Source: Trueperaceae bacterium
Lineage (GTDB): Bacteria; Deinococcota; Deinococci; Deinococcales; Trueperaceae
Assembly: GCA_965215565.1 (NCBI GenBank)
Contig: CBDCDZ010000004.1
Span: forward strand, 1,120,001-1,184,000
Direction: 5' to 3'
Length of the DNA stretch: 64,000 nucleotides
Under the pieces are notes generated by a model. The model had not been told where the DNA came from and made no database searches. It saw only the letters and a program-made list of their open reading frames with translations. The position numbers were made by a program, and so were the translations under genes. This document shows, one piece after another, positions 18,116-30,192 of this stretch. The first letter of the stretch is position 1. Every line of letters starts with the position of its first letter.

Positions 18116-18472
18116 ATGCGCAACAATAAGAACAAAGGCTTCACCCTCATCGAACTCCTCATCGTCATCGCCATCATCGGCATCCTAGCAGCGGTTCTCA
18201 TCCCGAACTTGCTCTCGGCTCGCAACCGTGCAAATGACAGTGCCACTCAAGCCTTCCTCCGCAACTGCATCACGGCTGTCGAAGCTAATCGCGACGCAGT
18301 TAAGCAAACTCTTCCAGCTGATGGCGATTGCGCGACACTCATGGGTGTAACGCTGCCCGCTGCTGTAACTTCTGCAACGTACGATACTGACACCACAACC
18401 GACACTTATACAGCTGAAGCTACCTCTGTTACGACAACGAAGTTCACCTACAACGGTGTCGAAATTCAGTAA
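18116..18472 (+). CDS. Type IV pilin (major-pilin-like)
   Basis: SD AAGGAG, and prepilin motif KG|FTLIELLIVIAIIGILAAVLIPNL. Confidence 0.93.
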   Translation: MRNNKNKGFTLIELLIVIAIIGILAAVLIPNLLSARNRANDSATQAFLRNCITAVEANRDAVKQTLPADGDCATLMGVTLPAAVTSATYDTDTTTDTYTAEATSVTTTKFTYNGVEIQ

Positions 18473-18582: not shown

Positions 18583-18960
18583 ATGAAGAAAGGAGCAGGT
18601 CAAGCTTTTACGTTAGTTGAGTTACTTATCGTTATTGCTATTATCGGCGCTTTAGCAGCAGTTATGGTTCCAAATCTTCTACAAGCTCGCCATGCCGCTC
18701 AAGACCGTGCCACGCAAGCTTACGTTTACCAAGTGGTGCAAGGCGTTGAGGCAAAACGAGATTCAGTTGGACAGAGAATACCCTCAGTAGCAGCCTGTAA
18801 TGTATTTGCAGTTTTGATTACTGACCCTAAAAGCAGTGTTAAGCGATGCAAATATGTACCTGATGCTTCTACAGAAACTTACAAGATCACAGCAGAGAGC
18901 TTTTCAGGTAAGATATTCCAGTTTAACGGTGAAGAAATCGTTATTGCACCAAGCTACTAA
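18583..18960 (+). CDS. Second type IV pilin-like protein
   Basis: QA|FTLVELLIVIAIIGALAAVMVPNL, with a Cys pair. Codons are AT-rich. Confidence 0.88.
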   Translation: MKKGAGQAFTLVELLIVIAIIGALAAVMVPNLLQARHAAQDRATQAYVYQVVQGVEAKRDSVGQRIPSVAACNVFAVLITDPKSSVKRCKYVPDASTETYKITAESFSGKIFQFNGEEIVIAPSY

Positions 18961-19048
18961 GCACCTCATCACCCTGTAAATTCCAGGCGGCTTCTTTAGC
19001 CGTCTTTTTTCTTATCTTTAGGTCATCTCGCTGTATCATAAACCCGTG
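18961..19048 (+). repeat. TA-array repeat R0 (3' half degenerate)
   Basis: GCACCTCATC..GTAAATTCCAGGCGGCTTCTTTAGCCGTCTTTTTTCTT. Confidence 0.8.
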
Positions 19049-19062
19049 CGCATTTTCTTACG

Positions 19063-19332
19063 CTAAACCCTTTTGTAAACCTCTCGCCTATGCCCAACAA
19101 AGAATAGAGTCAACACTCTTTGCTCGTCATTGAGTTTGTAGACTGCGCGGTAGCTCCCTACGCGGAGTTTATAAAAACCTTTGAGGTCGGCGCTGAGCGC
19201 TTCGGGTTTGACGTTGCTCAGGTTCTCTGAAAGCTATCTAACTTTATTAAGGATGCGCTGAGCAACAGTGCGGTCTAGCGAAGCGAGGTCTTTTTGAGCT
19301 TCAGGTCGAAACGCAACCCCGTAGGGCGTCAC
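19063..19332 (-). pseudogene. RelE/ParE-family toxin with an internal stop codon
   Basis: Hand translation: MTPYGVAFRPEAQKDLASLDRTVAQRILNKVR*LSENLSNVKPEALSADLKGFYKLRVGSYRAVY...VGHRREVYKRV. In-frame TAG at 19234-19236. Confidence 0.85.
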
Positions 19333-19526
19333 CAGGAGAGCCCCAACTCCTCAGCGACGTCTTCGGCGGGAACGCTGGGTTCATTCGAGGTTTGAAGTCG
19401 CGCTTTCAGTGCGTCGCGGAGTTCGAGACCTTCGTCGGGGTCGCCTACAAGGTCCTCGAGCGCTTCCTCCACAGATTCTCGGACGAGCGCTTTGAACTGT
19501 TCGGGGGTAAAGTCTGAAACCTTCAT
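19329..19526 (-). CDS. Putative antitoxin paired with the RelE-like pseudogene
   Basis: Small acidic protein ending EDVAEELGLSW. GTGA overlap with the toxin. TATAAT lies 7 nt upstream of the ATG. Confidence 0.8.
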   Translation of the reverse strand: MKVSDFTPEQFKALVRESVEEALEDLVGDPDEGLELRDALKARLQTSNEPSVPAEDVAEELGLSW

Positions 19527-19537
19527 CAGCACCATTA

Positions 19538-19648
19538 TAGCAGGTATCATCTGGTTTGAGCCAATCTCACTAGGTAAAACGTCGCGTAGCACGCACTTTA
19601 GGAGATGATATCTGCGTGATTCAAGCTCAGTACTTCTGATAACCGCTA
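19538..19648. mobile_element. TAGCAG-family MITE-like element, copy A
   Basis: Starts TAGCAGGTATCATCTGGT and ends AACCGCTA. Shares blocks with the copies at 22392 and 51163. Confidence 0.65.
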
Positions 19649-19664
19649 TATAACACCCTATTAC

Positions 19665-19763
19665 TCCAGGCGGCTTCTTTAGCCGTCTTTTTCTTTGGCT
19701 TTTAGCCGCCGCGGGGCGTGCTATCCTAAGCGTATGAGCACCTTTGAGCGAACCGCGGTAGAG
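19665..19763 (+). repeat. TA-array repeat R1
   Basis: GGCGGCTTCTTTAGCCGTCTTTTTCTTTGGCTTTTAGCCGCC..GTGCTATCCTAAGCGTATGAGCACCTTTGAGCGAA. Confidence 0.92.
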
Positions 19764-19786
19764 CTTGAAAATGTTAGACTCCAGAG

Positions 19787-20044
19787 ATGAAGGTCAGGCA
19801 GTTTTCGATGAGGCTCTATCTGCAAAAGGCGTTACAGCTTGCCGAGTACGAGCGTGACGAAGATGGCGTGGTCGTGGCGCGTGTGCCTGGCGCAGACGGG
19901 TTTTACGCGCAGGGCGAGAGCGTGGAAGAGGCACGTTCGGAGCTTGCGGATGTTGTTGAAGGTAATGTGCTGCTCGCGTTGCAGCTCGGTTTAGAGGTTC
20001 CAAAACTTCCAGATATTGAATTCTTGGAACAAGACGTTGCCTAA
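19787..20044 (+). CDS. HicB-family antitoxin (short form)
   Basis: VARVPGADGFYAQGESVEEARSEL motif. TGnTAGACT lies 6 nt before the ATG. Confidence 0.85.
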   Translation: MKVRQFSMRLYLQKALQLAEYERDEDGVVVARVPGADGFYAQGESVEEARSELADVVEGNVLLALQLGLEVPKLPDIEFLEQDVA

Positions 20045-20258
20045 GCTGACGCCTCTTAAAAGTCGAGAGGTTATCCGAAAACTTCACAAGCTGGGCTTCG
20101 AGGGACCGTTTCCCGGTGGGCGACACTCTCGGATGGTGAAGCGCGAAACGGGACAAATCGTACCGATTCCGATTCACAGTAAAGAGGTCGGCGTGGGGCT
20201 GATTCGTGAGATTATCCGGCAGGTTGGTATCAGCCGCGACGAATGGATAGCGTTGTAA
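20037..20258 (+). CDS. HicA-family toxin
   Basis: REVIRKLHKLGF..GGRH..VPIPIH..IIRQVGISRDEW. Confidence 0.87.
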   Translation: MPKLTPLKSREVIRKLHKLGFEGPFPGGRHSRMVKRETGQIVPIPIHSKEVGVGLIREIIRQVGISRDEWIAL

Positions 20259-20354
20259 ATTCCGGGCGGCTTCTTTAGCCGTCTTTTTCTTTGGCTTTTA
20301 GCCGCCACGGGGTGTGCTATCCTAAGCGTATGAGCGCGCCCGAGCGAAGTGCGT
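20254..20354 (+). repeat. TA-array repeat R2
   Basis: Near-identical to R1. ATG at 20330. Confidence 0.92.
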
Positions 20355-20360
20355 TATCTA

Positions 20361-20741
20361 TTACCAGAGCCGCTTAATCGCGTAGGCGTCTAATGTCGCG
20401 TCTTTGCTTAGCAGCGGCAGTTTTTCATGAATACATTGCGCGACGAGGGTGCGGTCAAAGGGGTCACGGTGGTGAAAAGGGAGCGATGAGAGGATGTCTA
20501 GGTGTTCAGGCGTGATGGGCAGAAGTTCGAAGCCCAAACTCAAGGCTTCACCAACAAGCGCCGAAATGGGCGTGTCAAGCTCGAGCTTGCCGACAGAGAC
20601 CTTGATGGAAATTTCCCACGGACTGACGATGCTCAGCACAGGTTGATTCTCACCCTCTAAAATCTCAGCGGCGTACTCGCTCAGCCTAGCGTCATCCGTG
20701 CTGTACCAGAGGAAAGTATGGGTGTCGAGGATAAACCTCAT
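20361..20741 (-). CDS. VapC-family PIN-domain toxin
   Basis: LDTHTFLW, SPWEISIK and HRDPFDR motifs. Confidence 0.92.
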   Translation of the reverse strand: MRFILDTHTFLWYSTDDARLSEYAAEILEGENQPVLSIVSPWEISIKVSVGKLELDTPISALVGEALSLGFELLPITPEHLDILSSLPFHHRDPFDRTLVAQCIHEKLPLLSKDATLDAYAIKRLW

Positions 20742-20974
20742 TCGGGTAGGTAATTCTCAAAGCCTTCGGGGATGTCCTTGAAGTCTTCAGCGATCCGAAT
20801 TTTGCCTTTCGCAAAGCCTAGCCCGCCCCGTTTGTGTTTCTCTAACCGCTTGCGCTCAAGCGCTGTCTTGTGAAGCAAGAACTCTGCAAAGTCCTGTACT
20901 TCTCGCTGTTGCGGCTCTGGTAACTGGGGCAAGAGGTCATTGACCGCCTCGATGCTTGTTTTTTGATCAGCCAT
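20738..20974 (-). CDS. Antitoxin (DUF2281-like) paired with VapC
   Basis: LPEPQQREVQDFAEFL..GFAKGKIRIAEDF. ATGA overlap with vapC. Confidence 0.83.
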   Translation of the reverse strand: MADQKTSIEAVNDLLPQLPEPQQREVQDFAEFLLHKTALERKRLEKHKRGGLGFAKGKIRIAEDFKDIPEGFENYLPE

Positions 20975-21003
20975 AGGAGAAGTTTACTCCATTTTGCTTG
21001 TTT

Positions 21004-21097
21004 GGGCGGCTTTTCGCTGTCTTTTTCTTTGGCTTTCAGCCGCCATTAGGCGTGCTATCCTAAGCGTATGAGCACCTTTGAGCGAATCGCGGTAGAG
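21004..21097 (+). repeat. TA-array repeat R3; its ATG is the real start of the downstream antitoxin
   Basis: Same consensus as R1. ATG at 21068 opens MSTFERIAVE... Confidence 0.9.
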
Positions 21098-21274
21098 CCT
21101 GAATACATTACGGACCATGAAGGGCGCAAGACCAAGGTCGTTTTGCCTATCGAGGTATTTGAGGAACTGCTAGAAGACCTACATGACCTCTCGGTTGTCG
21201 CAGAGCGGCGTGATGAGCCTCTTCTTGCTTGGGAAGATGTGAAGCGTGACTTAGAGGAAGATGGCGCGTTATAG
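21068..21274 (+). CDS. Putative antitoxin paired with RelE
   Basis: YITDHEGRKTKVVLPIEVFEELLEDLHD..WEDVKRDL. Overlaps relE. Confidence 0.82.
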   Translation: MSTFERIAVEPEYITDHEGRKTKVVLPIEVFEELLEDLHDLSVVAERRDEPLLAWEDVKRDLEEDGAL

Positions 21275-21527
21275 GCTGCTTGCTCGTTCGTCTTTTCGAA
21301 AAGACCTCAAGAGGTTATCCAAAGACGTTGCCGCTCGGGTAGCGACTAAAGTTGAGCGTTTAGCCGAGGATCCTTTCCCGGCGGATAGCAAGAAATTGCA
21401 GGGTCATAAAGGGCTTTACCGTGTGCGTGTGGGCGCGTACCGAGTCGTATATGAGGTAGATCAAGAGGTCAAAATTATTGCGCTAACGTATGCGCGTCAC
21501 CGGAAGGACGTTTACCGGAACCTCTAA
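21261..21527 (+). CDS. RelE/ParE-family toxin
   Basis: KKLQG..LYRVRVGAYRVVYEVD..HRKDVYR. Confidence 0.92.
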   Translation: MARYRLLARSSFRKDLKRLSKDVAARVATKVERLAEDPFPADSKKLQGHKGLYRVRVGAYRVVYEVDQEVKIIALTYARHRKDVYRNL

Positions 21528-21535
21528 ACTCCCTT

Positions 21536-21640
21536 TGTGACTTCTGGGCGGCTTCTTTGGTTGCCTTTTCCTCTGCTTTTAGCCGCTACTAGGCGTGCTA
21601 TCCTAAGCGTATGAGTACGTTTGAGCGAACTGTAGTAAAG
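21536..21640 (+). repeat. TA-array repeat R4
   Basis: Diverged hairpin, conserved GGCGTGCTATCCTAAGCGTATGAG. Confidence 0.88.
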
Positions 21641-21673
21641 TCAGGGTGCAAACAGGCTTAAAGAGGGTGTTGC

Positions 21674-22003
21674 TTGGACATTCATAGCCCCGACGTTATT
21701 TTAGAACGTATCAAAGCTCAGGCGGCAGCAGACAATCTCGTTTTAACGCTCCACGCGGCGGAAGAGATGCAAGACGAGGCGGTGTTGTTAGATGAGGTCT
21801 TAGTGGCTCTAGCTGACGGCAGTGTGCTCGAAAACTACCCTACCTTTTATAAAGGTCCGTGCTGCTTAGTCTGTGGACGCGGCAGTCAGGGGCGTTATCT
21901 GCACATCGTCTGCTCGACTTCGCGCCCAAAACTCTTTATCATTACGGTGTATGAGCCGAAACCGCCGAAGTGGGTAACGCCTACCGAAAGAGGTCAGAAA
22001 TGA
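21674..22003 (+). CDS. DUF4258-domain protein (putative toxin)
   Basis: TLHAAEEM, ENYP..GPCCLV, LHIVC and ITVYEP..W motifs. Confidence 0.82.
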   Translation: MDIHSPDVILERIKAQAAADNLVLTLHAAEEMQDEAVLLDEVLVALADGSVLENYPTFYKGPCCLVCGRGSQGRYLHIVCSTSRPKLFIITVYEPKPPKWVTPTERGQK

Positions 22004-22233
22004 ACTGCCGAATGGAATGCCCTGGAAGCTACGAACCCAAAACGATCCTCTTTCGCGGCAAGCAGAAGGACGAAACGGTTATGATTGATGACGTACCCGC
22101 TTTGGTTTGTCAGGTGTGCGGCGATACGGTTTTAGAACCTGATGTGGTGCGGCATATCGAAGAACTGTTGCACTCTGAGGAAGAGCCGAGCAAGCAGTAT
22201 CCCGTTTTTACATTTGCACAAAAAGCTGCTTAG
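22000..22233 (+). CDS. YgiT/MqsA-type zinc-finger protein (putative antitoxin)
   Basis: CRMEC..DVPALVCQVCGD. ATGA overlap with the DUF4258 gene. Confidence 0.82.
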   Translation: MNCRMECPGSYEPKTILFRGKQKDETVMIDDVPALVCQVCGDTVLEPDVVRHIEELLHSEEEPSKQYPVFTFAQKAA

Positions 22234-22351
22234 CACCTCATCATCCCGTGAATTTCGGACGGCTTCTTTAGCCGTCTTTTTCCTTGGCTTTTAGCCGCCA
22301 CTAGGCGTGCTATCCTAAGCGTGTGAGCACGCCCAAGCGAAGTGCGGTAGA
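22233..22351 (+). repeat. TA-array repeat R5
   Basis: Shares the 5' extension GCACCTCATC with R0 and the 3' extension AAACAGGCTTAAAGAGG with R4. Confidence 0.9.
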
Positions 22352-22385
22352 ATCGGAATATAAACAGGCTTAAAGAGGTTGTTGC

Positions 22386-22601
22386 TTGGATTAGCAGGTA
22401 TCATCTGGTCAGAGTGTACGAAGTTTTGCGAAGCAACACTCTCACTTTGTGAAACGCTGTTTCACTGCGTGAAAACTTCGTAATTAGCACGTAACTTTAA
22501 GGGATGAAATCCCGCTAGTCCTACGGACAGAGACCTGCGTTCAACTGTCTCAGGGTGTCGTGAAACTGCTAGATGTTTATAGTCCTGACGTCATCTTAGA
22601 C
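22386..22601 (+). pseudogene. Relic of a second DUF4258 gene start, split by a MITE
   Basis: TTGGAT|MITE|GATGTTTATAGTCCTGACGTCATCTTAGA (DVYSPDVIL) matches DIHSPDVIL at 21677. Confidence 0.7.
22392..22571. mobile_element. TAGCAG-family MITE-like element, copy B
   Basis: Termini TAGCAGGT...AACTGCTA. Long identity to 51163-51318. Confidence 0.75.
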
Positions 22602-22662: not shown

Positions 22663-22737
22663 TGGTAGGCGCGGGCAGGATTGAACTGCCGACCTCCACA
22701 GTGTCAGTGTGGCGCTCTCCCACTGAGCTACGCGCCT
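22663..22737 (-). tRNA. tRNA-Val(GAC)
   Basis: Reverse complement AGGCGCGTAGCTCAGTGGGAGAGCGCCACACT-GAC-ACTGTGGAGGTCGGCAGTTCAATCCTGCCCGCGCCTACCA. Confidence 0.96.
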
Positions 22738-22808
22738 ATACAAATAACTGGTTCTAAATTGACTTATGAGGTATCACCTTTTTGACGAGATGATACCTCC
22801 AAGCTTTT

Positions 22809-22883
<75 letters not shown>

Positions 22884-23247: not shown

Positions 23248-23949
23248 CTACTCGTCGTGAATGATGCGGGTTATGCGCCCGACGATCTCATCGACGCGGT
23301 CGATCTGGATGACGCTAGGTGTGCCGTTGGTGTGGGTGACGTTGCCGGACTGGAGGAAGCGTCCGAACTGATCGTCCTTTAGGACCTTGCAGACGTAGCC
23401 GTCATCGCGCAAACGCGCGACTACAGCGCTATTCGCGTGCCCTTTGTCGTTGCGGTTCACGACGACGGTGTCGCCGTGGTAGATGGGGCTCTTGCCCGCC
23501 TCCATCGAGTCGCCACGGATGCGAAACGCGACTAAATCTTTTCCCCGCGCGAAGCCCTCCTCTACCCAAATAACCTCGTCTAGGACGACTTCGTGCCGGT
23601 CTGGACCTGCGCCGACCCACCCTGCAACACTGACTCTGACCTGCGTAGGGCGCAGCGTATCCGCGCCTGGGGCATCTGGCTCTACGAGGTAGACAAGTTC
23701 ATGTGTAGGCACCTCCAGCGCCTCTGCAAGCTGCATCAGAAAGGCTAGGCTAGGTACCTTCCAGGCGTGTGGCGCGGACTCTGGACGCCCTCTTACAAGC
23801 TCGTACAGCGTACTCTTTCCTAGCCCGAAGTGTCTAGCGAACTGCGTTATGTTCTCAATCCCCAATTCTCGCATCCGAGTCGTTATGAGATGGTTGAGTG
23901 GTCCCCTAAGTTTTTTGACCGCTGTCTTTTTTGCTTGTAGTCTTTCCAT
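23248..23949 (-). CDS. XRE HTH + S24 peptidase (CI/LexA-like) repressor
   Basis: N-terminal HTH, GWVGAG cleavage-site motif, GDSM serine and VCKVL lysine. Leaderless TACACT-N7-ATG. Confidence 0.88.
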   Translation of the reverse strand: MERLQAKKTAVKKLRGPLNHLITTRMRELGIENITQFARHFGLGKSTLYELVRGRPESAPHAWKVPSLAFLMQLAEALEVPTHELVYLVEPDAPGADTLRPTQVRVSVAGWVGAGPDRHEVVLDEVIWVEEGFARGKDLVAFRIRGDSMEAGKSPIYHGDTVVVNRNDKGHANSAVVARLRDDGYVCKVLKDDQFGRFLQSGNVTHTNGTPSVIQIDRVDEIVGRITRIIHDE

Positions 23950-23973
23950 GAAGGCAAGTGTAAAGAAAATCAC

Positions 23974-24002
23974 TTGACTTGTCCAGAGGTTTGGAATAAG
24001 CT
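23974..24002 (+). promoter_or_regulatory. Promoter of the Cro-like gene, divergent from the repressor
   Basis: TTGACT-17 bp-TAAGCT. Confidence 0.65.
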
Positions 24003-24031
24003 TTGACTACGTTTTGGAAAAGGAGGCGTTA

Positions 24032-24262
24032 GTGTTACACAAGAGGATTCAAAAAAGGAGCGAGGAATTAGGGCTAAACCAGAGCGATTTAGCCCGTCGC
24101 TCAGGGCTCTCGACGTCGTATATAGGCTATATCTGGCATGGTGTACACGGAAGGAACATGAGTTATCAGACCATGTTGAAGTTAAAGAAAGCGTTAAGAG
24201 TGCCCCTCTCTTTTTTCTCTGAAGATGACGTAGTTTTGGAAAAACGGCATGTCGAGGTTTAG
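24032..24262 (+). CDS. Small XRE/Cro-like HTH protein
   Basis: SD AGGAGG before the GTG, and LGLNQSDLARRSGLSTSYIGYI. Confidence 0.85.
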   Translation: MLHKRIQKRSEELGLNQSDLARRSGLSTSYIGYIWHGVHGRNMSYQTMLKLKKALRVPLSFFSEDDVVLEKRHVEV

Positions 24263-24698
24263 CTCGGAAAGGGGGGTGAGCCTCTTAACGACCCGAGAGT
24301 GTGGACAGTTGTTTCGCAAAACGGTAAAGACGATTAAGCGAGCAATGAAGCGTAACGACGTTTATGTCGAGTACCACATGATTCCCTTTGGGCGCGGCTC
24401 GAGTCGCACTGCTTACATCGACCCCTCCACGCTTCCCTTCGAGCGAAGTGAGCAGAGGAACGAAACACACTTTCGTTCCAAAGGCGTTTTGGCAGAGGGA
24501 CATTTTGAGCGCTTAGCAGAGGGACACGCCCGAGTAGAAGGACATTTAGAATTTAGTCCGCCTGAAACGCAAAAACGCAAGGAAAAGACCCAAGACAGCA
24601 CTGCTGTTCACGCCGGGGGGCTCGGAGGTCTAGCAGCGGCTGCCGCGCAACGCTACCCCGCACGTATCAGTTTACATGACGCACGCGCCTCTTCATAG
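24249..24698 (+). pseudogene. ORF with an N-terminal MuA-like DNA-binding pattern and no catalytic core (probable truncated transposase)
   Basis: LTTRECGQL...GRGS..YIDPSTLP pattern, in the third position after a repressor/cro pair. Confidence 0.4.
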
Positions 24699-24762
24699 CG
24701 CCTTGCCCTAATTTGACTATCCACCTTACACGTTACCTTAAATTTTAAGGTACAATACTTTT

Positions 24763-24957
24763 ATGGAAAACTTCACACTCCTGAGCGAAGCTATTACGCC
24801 AGAGATTGCCGTGCTCCTCCGGGCGGCGTTCGTCGCGGCGCTCCTCTTCGGGCTCGAGACGCTCGGCAACGCGAGACGCAAAGCGGCGCGCGCAGAGGTA
24901 ACACAAGCAGAGCGCCCCGAGAGGCGACTCGTAAAAAAGCGGATCGTCAAAGCTTAA
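24763..24957 (+). CDS. Small hypothetical membrane protein
   Basis: TACAAT lies 6 nt before the ATG. One hydrophobic segment and a basic tail. Confidence 0.5.
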   Translation: MENFTLLSEAITPEIAVLLRAAFVAALLFGLETLGNARRKAARAEVTQAERPERRLVKKRIVKA

Positions 24958-25065: not shown

Positions 25066-28000
25066 ATGGCGAACCCCTCAAAATCCGCTCCAACACAATT
25101 TGCCCACCTGCACCAGCACACCGCCTATAGCCTCTTAGACGGCGCAGCCCGCATCAAAGACCTGATGAAGTGGGTTGTAGAGGTCTCGCCCGAGAACCCG
25201 GTCTTGGCAATGACCGATCACGGCAACATGCACGGCGCGGTGGAGTTTTACAAGGCGGCGGAGAAAGAGGGCGTCAAGCCGATCTTAGGCTTCGAGGCGT
25301 ACGTGAGCGCGGGCTCGCGCTTCGAGAAGAAAAAGCCCTCGTCGAAGCTGGACGGTGGCTATTTTCACCTCACCCTGTTGGCAAAAAACTTCACGGGCTA
25401 CCAGAACCTCTGCAAGCTGAACTCGAGGGGGTGGTTGGAAGGTTTCTACATGAAACCCCGCGTGGACCACGAGCTTCTGCGCGAATACTCCGAGGGCGTC
25501 ATCGCTATGTCGGGCTGCTTGGGGGCGCAGATTCCTAGAAACCTCTTGGATTTAGGCGAAGCGGCAGGCGATGAGGTCTTGCAGAAGTATTTAGACATCT
25601 ACGGCGAGAACTTTTTTATCGAGTTGCAGAACCACGTGCCGGAAAAAGCCAGTGATATGGACGCTTCACTTCGCGACCTCGCCGAGCAGCAGACGCGCCT
25701 CAACCCGATGCTCAAAAGTTTGGCGGACAAGTACGGGCTGGGCATGGTGGCGACGAACGACGGGCACTACGTTAAGAAAGAGGACGCCAAAGCGCACGAG
25801 GCCCTCTTAGCCATTCAGACCAAAACGACGCTGTCCGATCCCGGACGCTTCAAGTTTCCCTGCGACGAGTTCTACGTCAAGACGCCCGAAGAGATGGCGA
25901 GGGCGATTCCTGAAGACGAGTATCCGAGCGCCTTGGCGAACAGCATGAGCGTCGCGGACCTTTGCGACGTGACGCTGCCCATCGGCTCCAAGCGCGTCTA
26001 CCAGATGCCCGAGCTGCCGATTCCGGCGGGGCGGACGCTCGCCGAGCAGCTCCGCGTACAGACGTATGAGGGTCTCATCGAGCGCTACGAAGAGGTTACC
26101 GAAGAGCTTTACCGCGATTACCTCGCATGTTCTGGCGAAAGCGTACCCAGTGAGGCGGAAGCGGTCTACCTCAAGCTGGCACAAGTCGGGGAAAGAGGTC
26201 GGACGCCCAAAGAAGAGGGGCAGAACTTCGACACGTTCGCGTATCCCTGTTTGAAAGCGTTTAGAGAACAGGGAACGGCGAGCGAAGAGGCGCTAGGGAT
26301 TCTCGAGCGGGCCGAATTCGAGTTAGGTGTGATTATCGCGATGGGCTTTCCAGATTACTTCCTCATCGTCGCGGACTTCATCAACTGGGCGAAGGACAAC
26401 GGCATTGCGGTGGGACCGGGGCGCGGCTCGGGCGCGGGCTCCATCGTCGCCTTTGCGACGCGCATCACCGACATCGACCCTTTAGAGTTCGACCTCTTGT
26501 TCGAGCGCTTTTTGAACCCCGACAGGGTCTCCATGCCCGACTTCGACGTGGACTTTTCCGACACGCGGCGCATGGAGGTGGTGGACTACGTGCGGCGCAA
26601 ATACGGCGAGGAGAAAGTGGCGCAGATTGCCACCTTTGGGACGATGGCGTCGAAAGCGGCGATTCGGGACGCGGCGCGAGTGTTAGAAGCACCTTACGCC
26701 GACGCCGACGCGGTCTCCAAACTCATCCCCGTCGTCTTCGGGCGCTCCACACCTATAGCGCGGGCGATGGATGAGGTCACCGAAATCAAGCAGCTTTATG
26801 ATGGCGGCGCAAAGGAGTTTGTAGACGTCGCGATGAGCTTGGAGGGTTTGACGCGCCACGCCTCGGTGCACGCGGCGGGCGTCATCATCGCCCGCGAGCC
26901 CGTCCAAGAACTCGCGCCCGTGTTTCGTAGCGGCGACGGTCCCATCGTCTGCCAGTACGACATGGGCTCGGTGGAGGACTTGGGCTTCATCAAGATGGAT
27001 TTTCTGGGCTTGCGCACCCTCTCCTTTATCGAGGCGGCGATTCGCATCGTCAAGGAGTCGCGCGGCGTCGAACTCGACGTGGACGCCTTTCCCAAAGATG
27101 ACGAGAAGACGTTTGCGCTGCTCTCGAGGGGTGAAGCCGCCGGCGTCTTCCAGTTCGAGTCGCCCGGCATGGTCGATACGCTCAAGAAGCTCAAGCCGCG
27201 CCGCGTCCAAGACCTCATCGCGGTCTCGGCGCTCTACCGCCCCGGTCCGATGGAGAACATCCCCACCTACATCCGGCGGCACCACGGCGCGGACAACCCG
27301 GACTTTTCCGAGGACCCCTACACTGACTTCCCCGAGTCGCGGCAGTATTTGGAGTCCATCTTAGAGGAGACCTACGGCATCCCTGTTTACCAAGAACAGA
27401 TTATGCAGATTGCGCAGGCAGTCGCGGGCTACTCCCTGGGCGAAGCCGACCTCTTGCGCAGGGCGATGGGCAAGAAAAAAGTCGAGGAGATGGTCAAGCA
27501 GCGCCAGATTTTTTTAGACGGGGCGAAAAAGAAAGGTATTTCTAAAGGCGAAGCAAGTCAAATCTTTGATTTGCTAGAGAAATTTGCCAATTACGGCTTT
27601 AACAAGTGCGTCGTAGGCGAGACGCTCATCCCGGACGCACAGACGGGGCAGCTTCACACAGCAGCCGACCTCTTCGTAAGACAGCATCACCCCGACGTGG
27701 TGAGCGTTCAAGAGGACTTCAGTTTGACGCAGAGCAAAACCGCACAGGTCATGCAAAACGGTGTCAAGCCCGTTTACACCCTCACCACCTCTTTGGGTAA
27801 AGAGATCACTGCGACGGGCAACCACCCCTTTAGAACGTTGGACGGTTGGACCAATTTAGAAGATTTGCGCCCCGGCGAGCACGTCGCGTCGCCCGCGCAC
27901 CTGCTTGTACAAGGACAAGAGGTCTGGGACGCGCACGAACTCATTACGCTGGGCTGGACGCTCGCGGAGGGCAATACCTGCCACCCGTGCGGCGTGTATC

Positions 28001-30192
28001 TCTACAGCAACAATGAGGTTGTAGTGGAGGACATGGTTAGGGCGGCGGCGCAGTTCGAGAACACCGCGCCTACCGTCAAGAAGCGTCTCGAACGAAACCA
28101 CACCTTCGACGTCTATTTGGGGACCGGCAAGCGCGGTTCAGCCAGCGGCGGACGTTCAGGAGCGCGGCTGTGGCTCGAGGCACTTGGCGTCGTTGGGCAA
28201 GGGGCAGCGGAAAAGCACTTCCCTAAAGAGGTCTTCCGCCTCACGAACGACAACTTAGCCCTCTTGCTCGGACGCTACTGGTCAGGGGACGGGTTCGTTT
28301 TTGGACAAGGCAACGCGACTCCTTACGCCGCGCCCTCTTCAAAAGAACTCGCCAAAGAGCTACAACACCTCCTGCTCCGCTTCGGCGTCGTCAGCCGTTT
28401 AGCGAAAAAGACGTTCGCGTATAAGGAGGGCCGAACGGGCTTCACCGTTCACGTGTTGGGACGGCGAAGTGTCGAGAGGTTTTTAGAACATATCGCGTCG
28501 CATATTGTTGGAAAAGACGAACAGCTCGCATGTCTGCGTGAGTATTTAGCGCACACCCCCGCCGAGCGCGAAAGCGTGGACACCCTGCCGCCCGAAGTCA
28601 AACGTTGGGTTAAAGAAGCGAAGGAGCAGAGCGGTCTGACCTGGCGCGAGATTGAAGCGCAGAGTGGCGTGTGCGTTAAAGAGCTATACGGCGATGCGAA
28701 GGCGCACAAGAAGGGCTTTCGGCGCAGCACGGTTCGTAAACTCGCCGAATTTTTCGGCTCTGAGAGGCTGCGCCAAGCGTGTAGCGAAGACCTCTTCTGG
28801 GAGCGCGTCGAACGTACCGAACCTGCGGGCGAAGTGATGACGTACGACTTAGAAGTCGAGCACACCCACAACTTCGTCGCCAACGACCTCTTAATGCACA
28901 ACTCGCACTCGGCTGCTTACGGCGCACTCTCCTACCAAACCGCCTACCTAAAAGCGCACTACCCGTTAGAATTCGTCGCCGCCCTCCTGACCGTCGAGCG
29001 CGGCAACTCGGACAAAGTCGCGGAGTACATCACCGACGCGCGCTATCTGGGGCTCGAGGTCTTGCCCCCCGACGTCAACGAGTCACGGAGCGACTTCACG
29101 CCCGTGGACGAGGTCATCCGCTTCGGGCTCTACGGCATCAAAAATGTGGGCGACGCCGCTGTCGAACACATCTTGGACGAGCGCGACAAGGGCGGGAAGT
29201 TTAGAGACCTCTACGACTTTTGCAAACGGGTGGACTCGTCGCTAGTGAATAAGCGGGCGCTCGAGCACCTGGTCAAAGCGGGCGCGTTCGACGAACTCGG
29301 CAGCCGGAGCGACCTCTTAGCGAACCTAGAGCCCGCCATGAAGTGGGGCGCGGCGCAGCGCGAGCAGGCGGCGGCGGGGCAGTTCGGGCTCTTCGGCGCG
29401 GAGGAGACGAAGCCGCCTGCGCCTAACAAGGTGGCGGAGCATTCGAAGCTAGAGCTGCTCCGCTTCGAGAAAGAAGCGCTAGGGCTCTACATCTCGGACC
29501 ACCCGATGAACTCCTACCCCGGTCTGACCGACGCCGCGAACTGCACGGTGGCCAAAATCGACGCCTGCTACAAAGAGCTGATGAAACACGCCAGGGGCGA
29601 CCCCCGCCAGCGCATCGCCCTCGCGGGCATTCTACAAAACGTCGTCAAAAAGCCCACCAAGAAGGGCACGATGATGGCGCGCTTCGAAATCGCCGACGAG
29701 ACGGGCAGCCGCGAAGTCGTCGCTTTTAGCCGCACGTACGAAGAGATCGCTGACAAGCTGGGGGAGGACGCGCCCGTGGTGCTCGTGGTGGAGGTCTCGC
29801 AAGACCGGGACGGGGAGTCTATTCGCATCGTCGCGGACAGGCTGATTCGCTGGGAGGAGCGCGGCGACTTGCCCGAAGTTGCGATTGCGAGTTTTGACCT
29901 CGGTGACGTAAATGAGGCGCTCCTTACGGACTTCCGCTCGCACGTAGACGAGTTCGCGGGCATCACCCCGCTGCGCCTCAAGGTCCGCTCGCCGCGCGGC
30001 GTGGCACTCTACGCCACCGAAAATATCAGCATCGACAAGGCGAAGCTCAAAGATTTAGAGCGCACCTGCCCCTGGCTCAAAACAGCGGTGACGATCAACC
30101 GCGAGAGCCTCTTGCGCGCGCCCGTGAACCGCTACGGAAAACCCAAACAAGATGACGGGGGCGGCTTTAAGTCGGTGGAGGTGCCCTTTTAA
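25066..30192 (+). CDS. dnaE: DNA polymerase III alpha subunit (intein-containing)
   Basis: PHP motifs HLHQHTAYSLLDG and TDHG, GPGRGSGAGS, PDFDVDF and KMDFLGL. Confidence 0.97.
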   Translation: MANPSKSAPTQFAHLHQHTAYSLLDGAARIKDLMKWVVEVSPENPVLAMTDHGNMHGAVEFYKAAEKEGVKPILGFEAYVSAGSRFEKKKPSSKLDGGYFHLTLLAKNFTGYQNLCKLNSRGWLEGFYMKPRVDHELLREYSEGVIAMSGCLGAQIPRNLLDLGEAAGDEVLQKYLDIYGENFFIELQNHVPEKASDMDASLRDLAEQQTRLNPMLKSLADKYGLGMVATNDGHYVKKEDAKAHEALLAIQTKTTLSDPGRFKFPCDEFYVKTPEEMARAIPEDEYPSALANSMSVADLCDVTLPIGSKRVYQMPELPIPAGRTLAEQLRVQTYEGLIERYEEVTEELYRDYLACSGESVPSEAEAVYLKLAQVGERGRTPKEEGQNFDTFAYPCLKAFREQGTASEEALGILERAEFELGVIIAMGFPDYFLIVADFINWAKDNGIAVGPGRGSGAGSIVAFATRITDIDPLEFDLLFERFLNPDRVSMPDFDVDFSDTRRMEVVDYVRRKYGEEKVAQIATFGTMASKAAIRDAARVLEAPYADADAVSKLIPVVFGRSTPIARAMDEVTEIKQLYDGGAKEFVDVAMSLEGLTRHASVHAAGVIIAREPVQELAPVFRSGDGPIVCQYDMGSVEDLGFIKMDFLGLRTLSFIEAAIRIVKESRGVELDVDAFPKDDEKTFALLSRGEAAGVFQFESPGMVDTLKKLKPRRVQDLIAVSALYRPGPMENIPTYIRRHHGADNPDFSEDPYTDFPESRQYLESILEETYGIPVYQEQIMQIAQAVAGYSLGEADLLRRAMGKKKVEEMVKQRQIFLDGAKKKGISKGEASQIFDLLEKFANYGFNKCVVGETLIPDAQTGQLHTAADLFVRQHHPDVVSVQEDFSLTQSKTAQVMQNGVKPVYTLTTSLGKEITATGNHPFRTLDGWTNLEDLRPGEHVASPAHLLVQGQEVWDAHELITLGWTLAEGNTCHPCGVYLYSNNEVVVEDMVRAAAQFENTAPTVKKRLERNHTFDVYLGTGKRGSASGGRSGARLWLEALGVVGQGAAEKHFPKEVFRLTNDNLALLLGRYWSGDGFVFGQGNATPYAAPSSKELAKELQHLLLRFGVVSRLAKKTFAYKEGRTGFTVHVLGRRSVERFLEHIASHIVGKDEQLACLREYLAHTPAERESVDTLPPEVKRWVKEAKEQSGLTWREIEAQSGVCVKELYGDAKAHKKGFRRSTVRKLAEFFGSERLRQACSEDLFWERVERTEPAGEVMTYDLEVEHTHNFVANDLLMHNSHSAAYGALSYQTAYLKAHYPLEFVAALLTVERGNSDKVAEYITDARYLGLEVLPPDVNESRSDFTPVDEVIRFGLYGIKNVGDAAVEHILDERDKGGKFRDLYDFCKRVDSSLVNKRALEHLVKAGAFDELGSRSDLLANLEPAMKWGAAQREQAAAGQFGLFGAEETKPPAPNKVAEHSKLELLRFEKEALGLYISDHPMNSYPGLTDAANCTVAKIDACYKELMKHARGDPRQRIALAGILQNVVKKPTKKGTMMARFEIADETGSREVVAFSRTYEEIADKLGEDAPVVLVVEVSQDRDGESIRIVADRLIRWEERGDLPEVAIASFDLGDVNEALLTDFRSHVDEFAGITPLRLKVRSPRGVALYATENISIDKAKLKDLERTCPWLKTAVTINRESLLRAPVNRYGKPKQDDGGGFKSVEVPF
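27607..28902 (+). mobile_element. DnaE intein (432 aa) with LAGLIDADG homing endonuclease
   Basis: YGFNK|CVVGET ... TGNHPF ... LGWTLAEG ... LLGRYWSGDG ... TYDLEV..HNFVANDLLMHN|SHSAAY. Confidence 0.95.

Follow-up and report, generated by a model that had tools for sequence, protein, structure and literature searches.

In the T4-like phages RB49 and phi1, PeSL cassettes are small modules that are delimited by short repeats combining a terminator with a promoter and are swapped among relatives, the accessible part of the source reporting that no dedicated recombinase was found (PMC2839356). They are the closest known system to the locus described here, a row of toxin–antitoxin (TA) modules behind the pilin genes of a Trueperaceae bacterium, which we call array A and which is punctuated by a repeat, R. 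The window, that is the whole stretch of 64,000 nucleotides analyzed (G000:C4:1120001-1184000), belongs to a near-complete genome of 4.49 Mb with 58% G+C (G000, the genome under study). Array A resembles PeSL cassettes in each of these respects, its terminators and promoters being predicted. Unlike them, it is chromosomal, anchored at pilins and made of TA modules only, whereas PeSL cassettes occupy hyperplastic regions of T4-like phage genomes. Several of its modules lie on the opposite strand with a promoter of their own, and its repeat carries a stub of relB. Mini-circles have been shown for PeSL, according to the same part of that source, whereas array A is known from assembled sequence only.

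Sedentary chromosomal integrons and integrase-less clusters of attC sites (CALINs), as portrayed in the accessible portions of PMC4889954 and PMC13108822, share with array A compact and variable cassettes, sites in the same orientation and TA cassettes bearing promoters. Array A differs in having neither IntI nor attC cores, in its ragged repeat edges, in its restriction to TA modules and in a repeat that would supply terminator and promoter. The minimal mobile elements of Neisseria likewise combine a variable locus, homologous exchange and a competent host, and no mobility genes appear in the accessible text (PMC8627216). They swap content between two conserved genes, whereas in array A the upstream anchor alone is constant and the internal repeats permit additive growth. 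In the lpl cluster of Staphylococcus aureus, recombination in conserved stretches shuffles units across gene boundaries (PMC2568036, accessible part), a behavior that the chimeric antitoxins described below fit, but lpl genes are paralogues and the array A modules belong to unrelated families. Finally, the pilA-comZ locus of Thermus, in the same phylum, is a variable pilin locus that carries a TA pair; the accessible part of the source describes one pair in one species and no repeat or array (PMC5529391). A literature search, which covered few subscription journals, returned no description of repeat-delimited TA arrays at pilin genes.

Array A and the anatomy of its repeat

Array A is a real and variable TA cassette array that, by the features examined, is neither an integron nor a CALIN. 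A preliminary description, made from the letters of the window, had listed six same-orientation copies of about 100 bp (R0-R5). Their hairpin stems were located at 18986, 19669, 20265, 21005, 21547 and 22258, with stem-to-stem spacings within 542-740 nt (683, 596, 740, 542 and 711 nt). Over 85-143 nt, R1-R5 are 78-90% identical to one another (E 1e-17 to 1e-32), and R0 is a half copy with a diverged -10 box and start codon of its own, so called because its match to the other copies spans only 28-63 nt. The suggested genome-wide BLASTN check, complemented by a profile model, found these six copies at the array A locus and no copy elsewhere in G000. The repeat is not scattered, which rules out a dispersed repetitive extragenic palindromic (REP) element or MITE (miniature inverted-repeat transposable element) as its identity.

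Each of the five intervals in G000 holds one two-gene module, and Pfam and NCBIfam models bear out the families that had been named, except for the first antitoxin-like gene, which no model matches: this gene with a RelE pseudogene, HicB-HicA, DUF2281-VapC, RelB-RelE and DUF4258-YgiT. As a general rule, one module per interval fails, since two of the six intervals in the congener G001 contain three genes. The DUF4258 relic reported after R5 was recovered, with 77% identity over 83 nt to the start of the R4 cassette, whereas two MITE-like elements inside the array had been missed. In total, 10 of the 44 TA-like genes of G000 fall within the 3.2 kb of array A and the next clusters hold three, a share inflated by the 43-protein TA query set, which contains the array A proteins. 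The toxicity of the toxins and the promoter and terminator activity of the repeat are predicted.

By its sequence, R is a predicted pilin terminator fused to a predicted leaderless promoter and the 5' stub of relB. The left part comprises up to 35 nt of the pilA2 3' end with its untranslated region (UTR), followed by a stem-loop with a T tract that a pattern prediction scored as terminator-like in all six copies. In the middle, part of the stem occurs a second time. In every copy, a TAnnnT box (TATCCT, but TATCAT in R0) then lies 6 nt 5' of an ATG or GTG, a leaderless -10 layout described for this phylum (PMC12340547, accessible part); a -35/-10 promoter scan did not list the repeat promoters. 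The first relB codons follow the box, the frame being intact relB in R3 and a stub of 6-18 codons in the other copies, and a near-palindrome surrounds the box and start codon. The stub reading frame of R1 (19734-19790) has a stop codon overlapping the hicB start, which may couple translation or be chance.

Behind the pilins of record L046, a relBE homologue (62-64% amino acid identity) stands free, with a similar promoter and without the repeat, supporting an origin of the right half of R in the relBE operon. Across 16 copies in three genomes, the core of R is constant while its edges are ragged, reaching 0-35 nt into the pilin UTR and, for stubs, about 7-129 nt into relB; the promoter half is absent from two of the three copies in the congener G002. 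Short matches were seen by eye at some joints, for example at the ygiT and pilA2 ends. Plus-strand modules end 6-30 nt before the next stem, and minus-strand modules place their -10 box 16-18 nt from the stem.

Relatives, other genera and a second array

BLAST with the repeat across 61 genomes found copies in G000 and in G001 (seven copies), and the profile model, run across 128 family genomes, added G002 (three copies). G001 and G002 are the congeners of G000 (genus g1), the congener comparison being one between species. Strong matches are confined to these three genomes of the genus; three marginal single profile matches (E 0.003-0.008) fell in other family genomes. Both congener arrays lie behind the same pilins. 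The G001 array carries relBE, an addiction-module/ParE unit, HEPN-MNT with a DUF2281-like gene, HepT-MNT, DUF433-DUF5615 with YgiT, RelB'-PIN and a relB relic, and the G002 array RelB' with a deleted PIN plus DUF4258-YgiT, MazF-DUF2281-like and a DUF433 relic. The comparison with relatives that had been proposed as a check thus showed content and order to differ in all three genomes. Order is even reversed: RelB'-PIN stands before YgiT in G002 and after it in G001, and DUF2281' after YgiT in G002 and before it in G001.

Among the shared modules, relBE is the first cassette in G001, where RelE is 92% identical in amino acids; DUF4258-YgiT is 87% identical in nucleotides in G002, and YgiT alone 90% in G001. 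Overall, shared modules reach 81-90% nucleotide identity versus 84-87% for dnaE. Homology blocks of these modules stop in or beside repeats, and some deletions, such as that in the first G002 interval, remove a repeat by other joints. Chimeric antitoxins in G001 and G002 join a RelB or DUF2281 N-terminus to differing C-termini. The arrays end in truncated cassette starts, which in G000 and G001 duplicate a cassette still present in the row.

The proposed non-integron cassette platform therefore stands, the repeat being locus-confined, the relatives different, and attC cores and IntI lacking. Its placement between the pilin locus and tRNA-Val had to be given up: the anchor is the pilin operon, the downstream neighbors differ in the three congeners (tRNA-Val, metallo-hydrolase/dprA and tspO), and in G001 and G002 tRNA-Val and tRNA-Cys lie away from the array. 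Synteny is poor throughout the genus, breaking every few kilobases, so that differences in what flanks the pilin block do not prove that the block itself moves.

More globally, we examined the pilA loci of 25 family genomes, a non-random set picked for good pilin matches and long contigs. Repeat-punctuated TA arrays were present in six: the three congeners, G005 and G063 (genus g4), and G072 (genus g17), whose array also holds two DUF559 nucleases. Another five (G090, G074, G034, G025 and G079) carried TA genes next to the pilins but no multi-copy repeats, and TA genes were not seen there in the remaining 14. The hicB-hicA module of array A is 74-76% identical in nucleotides to modules in the G005 and G063 arrays, and one ParE module is last in G005 and first in G063. 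With five genomes searched for each, the g4 and g17 repeats occurred only at their pilin loci. They are unlike R beyond a 15-nt match; the g17 repeat begins with the pilin terminator and the g4 repeat after it. Outside the family, TA arrays are not general to pilin genes, because only 5 of the 78 pilin loci taken from other taxa had a match to the TA query set. HepT-MNT modules follow the pilin in L050 (an Atribacteria record) and L056 (a Meiothermus record), with multi-copy repeats in L050. Scans for exact repeat patterns gave no match in viral contigs, and none and one stretch in metagenomes, the latter (L040) having no pilin, TA match or self-repeat.

A scan of G000 for locus-confined repeats yielded four candidate places, two of which were array A. 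Array B (C4:4179400-4183800; L129:5400-9820) lies behind a herA-like operon and contains five copies of an unrelated repeat, which derives from the end of a yefM-like gene and has a core of about 28 bp. Its modules are a ParE-like pair, a BrnT-like pair (a label of our own reading, with no Pfam match), a GmrSD-domain protein (PADLOC HEC-06), an addiction-module gene, HicB and DUF433. At the same locus in G001 and G002 (L132, L133), modules are exchanged and reordered, GmrSD and the BrnT-like pair being swapped in order between G000 and G001. The four arrays (A, B and those of genera g4 and g17) use four unrelated repeats; one family would thus have evolved integron-like shuffling four times or more, each time out of unrelated regulatory sequence and without an integrase.

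We also inspected 23 lone TA loci in G000. At three of them, direct repeats of 24-66 nt bracket the TA pair, versus 3 of 200 random stretches (bits >= 30; at bits >= 26, 9 of 200 random stretches have bracketing repeats). All three are DUF433-DUF5615 pairs (C4:2220331-2221121, 2398389-2399102 and 2613746-2614461; L137, L131 and L130). The bracketing sequence in L130 corresponds to the 3' end of Uma2 genes arranged in tandem, and a DpnI-family gene lies close by. A further locus shared by G001 (L134; G001:C1:4473000-4481000) and G002 (L136; G002:C2:295000-304000) holds three to four TA modules of differing content, with a two-copy repeat of 70 nt in L134.

Integron tests and routes of exchange

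An integron or attC identity of R was rejected. The integron integrase model TIGR02249 exceeded its cut-off in none of five genomes (best 62.2 versus 265 bits). As had been stated from the sequence, array A contains no RYYYAAC...GTTRRRY pair; five of its six repeat regions have neither core, and the lone attC-core match adjoins R1 within the hicB promoter. An Rfam scan placed only tRNAs above the gathering score, and an attC-like fold was absent in four of the five copies folded, which did no better than shuffles (z -1.24 to 0.19). The fifth, R5, folded better than 200 of 200 shuffles, as a multi-hairpin. A tRNA attachment scar was likewise rejected, as the repeat BLAST gave no tRNA match and the tRNAs are unlinked in the congeners.

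The claim that the window lacks tyrosine and serine recombinases holds for the families covered, since none of the six tyrosine-recombinase matches and one resolvase match in G000 lies in it; large serine recombinases were not searched. Among five genomes, three have a resolvase and two a reverse transcriptase. Capture of cDNA was discarded, RVT_1 matches being absent from G000, G002 and G005, and so was Ku-type end joining, Ku being found in none of the five. ComEC is present in all five and DprA in G000, genes from which we infer a competent host. The contigs assembled from runs X1 and X2, which come from one sample that may be the source, match the assembly, although they break off at repeats; runs X3 and X4 account for small shares. 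Contig joints are mostly MITE cross-matches, and 15 of the 19 joints listed, all in assembled contigs, included no credible joint that goes back at a repeat. A single joint from R1 to R3 (side 22 nt, likeness 85) could stem from another strain or be artefactual.

On balance, modules probably move by general homologous recombination between repeats, combined with an addiction filter that retains TA modules. The starting point is visible in the sequence, where R reads as a copy of the stretch joining the pilin operon to the relBE operon. After duplication of this stretch, further TA operons would have been inserted among the stubs through illegitimate joining of the microhomology type, and this would account for the ragged edges. 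Transformation can yield tandem duplications through short repeats (PMC3784515), and one-anchor illegitimate integration has been described (PMC3240628), both according to the accessible parts of these sources. General recombination among the copies could subsequently add, delete and reorder modules, whether chromosome copies exchange unequally, circles loop out and re-insert, or competence brings in donor DNA; in this last route, the conserved 5' end of pilA would serve as a second anchor. Non-addictive content between repeats would be lost and TA modules kept, as loss of a TA module would kill, so that the row fills with TA modules, each predicted to be insulated from its neighbors by the terminator and promoter in each repeat. 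In integrons, TA cassettes kill on excision (PMC13108822, accessible part). The four unrelated repeats, the ragged edges and the truncated terminal duplicates favor general recombination over a dedicated enzyme; ragged edges together with the lack of a single crossover point favor ordinary homologous recombination in particular. The preliminary description had regarded the repeat as a recombination anchor. A part in crossover is what the comparisons suggest, though for a terminator, promoter and relB stub and not for a dedicated site.

Several points weigh against this account. Homology of about 100 bp at 81% mean identity, or of the roughly 28-bp core in array B, is a poor RecA substrate. The contigs examined showed neither an excised circle nor a variant at strain level, and species-level comparisons leave present-day activity of the exchange inferred. 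Trimming of modules almost exactly to the stop codon and -10 box is not explained by general recombination alone, shared modules are as diverged as core DNA, and none of the nine array A proteins submitted matched a PADLOC defence model. Of the 253 pairs of informative sites in 11 full copies, 119 are incompatible, over the entire length of the repeat, and no cut point leaves both halves tree-like; recurrent mutation could give the same mosaic look, because the neighbor-compatibility test was not significant (p 0.19).

Some of these observations would suit a frozen relic, in which the regulatory stretch of an old TA cluster was duplicated long ago and has since seen differential loss and decay only. 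The housekeeping-like divergence of shared modules, the pseudogene, relics and MITE insertions, and repeats (mean identity 81% over about 100 bp) that are equally alike within and between G000 and G001 (0.81 for 25 pairs versus 0.81 for 30 pairs) all fit. However, the order reversals in arrays A, B and genus g4 cannot arise by loss alone, and a G002-specific terminator loop common to all three G002 copies also counts against a relic, leaving this explanation unlikely. The tight trimming would also be expected of one-off insertions by repair, template switching or a capture enzyme that duplicate a variable stretch of the target and leave repeats as scars unused later. Array repeats indeed copy sequence at the array head (the pilin terminator in g1 and g17, the yefM-like gene end in array B), and lone pairs are bracketed by direct repeats more often than random stretches; but all bracketed cases are of one family, 20 of the 23 loci have no such repeat, and the same modules at differing positions in relatives need movement after capture, so that we hold insertion alone to be quite improbable.

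Recombinase action in trans, the second exchange route envisaged in the preliminary description, was judged less likely than the first, homologous recombination, and we give it little credence. A site-specific enzyme encoded elsewhere might act on, for example, the near-palindrome in an integron-like manner; the six tyrosine recombinases and resolvase of G000, the fixed core with varying edges, the short conserved core in array B and the fold of R5 are compatible with this. Yet the other folded copies and the integrase scores are unremarkable, two of three G002 copies lack the promoter half, no single crossover point exists, and four unrelated repeats would require four enzymes. The near-palindrome is equally explained as an antitoxin operator, as type II TA systems are autoregulated by an antitoxin that binds its own operator.

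Returning to homologous recombination with an addiction filter, its extension beyond this family is tentative. Possibly, in competent bacteria, general recombinase-free capture duplicates the stretch after a conserved and often-exchanged anchor (pilA, the herA region, tRNAs) and so repeatedly builds integron-like arrays; colonizing TA modules might then make the linked pilin allele hard to replace and so couple variation in phage receptors with addiction and defence. Such arrays escape attC-based tools. They bear on the origin of gene cassettes, the movement and clustering of chromosomal TA modules and defence-rich spots without mobile elements, and their design is simple enough for rebuilding in transformable Thermus or Deinococcus.

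Pilins, modules and neighboring features

Features of array A and its surroundings (positions in the window)
Feature	Position	Strand	Details
pilA1, major type IV pilin, PilA4 family; array anchor	18116..18472	+	Pfam PF18682, PF07963
pilA2, second PilA4-family pilin; 3' UTR is left part of repeat	18583..18960	+	Pfam
R0, half copy	18961..19066	+	Pilin terminator 18985-19005, -10 box 19034-19039, GTG 19046, 6-codon stub
RelE/StbE toxin pseudogene, one internal stop at codon 33	19061..19332	-	TIGR02385 36.5 bits, stop read as X
Antitoxin-like gene, 66 amino acids, leaderless, own TATAAT	19329..19529	-	No Pfam/NCBIfam match
MITE-like genome-wide element, just upstream of the -10 box of the 66-amino-acid gene, outside repeat	19536..19650		259 BLAST hits in G000
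R1	19654..19769	+	Terminator, second arm, -10 (19722), ATG 19734, 18-codon stub
hicB 19787-20044, hicA 20037-20258	19787..20258	+	PF21748/PF15919, PF07927
R2	20254..20356	+	
DUF2281/VapB-like antitoxin 20738-20974, PIN/VapC 20361-20741	20361..20974	-	PF10047, PF01850; NF050009 below cut-off
R3	21005..21067	+	Passes straight into intact relB (ATG 21068)
relB 21068-21274, relE 21261-21527; source of right half of repeat	21068..21527	+	PF18506, PF05016, TIGR02385
R4	21536..21629	+	
DUF4258 21674-22003, YgiT-type zinc finger 22000-22233	21674..22233	+	PF14076, TIGR03831
R5	22223..22360	+	Left edge 35 nt into pilin 3' end homology, overlaps ygiT stop
Second DUF4258 cassette start, relic, split by MITE-like element 22392-22571	22361..22601	+	
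tRNA-Val 22663-22737, tRNA-Cys 22809-22883	22663..22883	-	Neighbors in G000 only, outside platform

The internal stop of the RelE pseudogene is spelled by identical letters in the contigs of runs X1 and X2, and its 66-amino-acid partner is presumably an antitoxin, judging by its position. The two MITE-like elements, the second with 151 BLAST hits in G000, belong to two related families that have their 5' ends in common and TA at the flanks, and that are abundant in the congeners too.

The pilin gene is itself prone to swapping: the full-length sequences most similar to it belong to another family (63-65% identity) and not to the congeners (47-52%). The variable part of pilA1 is 20-25% identical to the congeners and 44% to another genus. 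Among the best-ranked named records that carry a related pilin are several Trueperaceae (L041, L043, L046 and L048), which fits a Trueperaceae host. Upstream of the G002 pilins, a short GIY-YIG nuclease is accompanied by palindromic repeats (L015:17700-18514), and dense REP-like mosaics surround the pilins in L046:1-4000; both resemble the Ssn nuclease/repeat pairs described in the accessible part of PMC11893778. The motif CTCGAG has 6790 sites on contig C4 versus 5069 expected from 5-mers. It dominates g4 and G002 array spacers, and the array A repeat lacks it.

Downstream, between tRNA-Cys and dnaE, positions 23248-24957 encode a divergent LexA/CI-like repressor (helix-turn-helix and peptidase S24), a Cro-like helix-turn-helix protein and two small reading frames. 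This region is largely absent there in G001 and may be a prophage or island remnant. The dnaE reading frame itself (25066-30192; 1708 amino acids) contains an intein-like insertion, with a C...HN motif recognized by eye, and the matching part is missing in G002.

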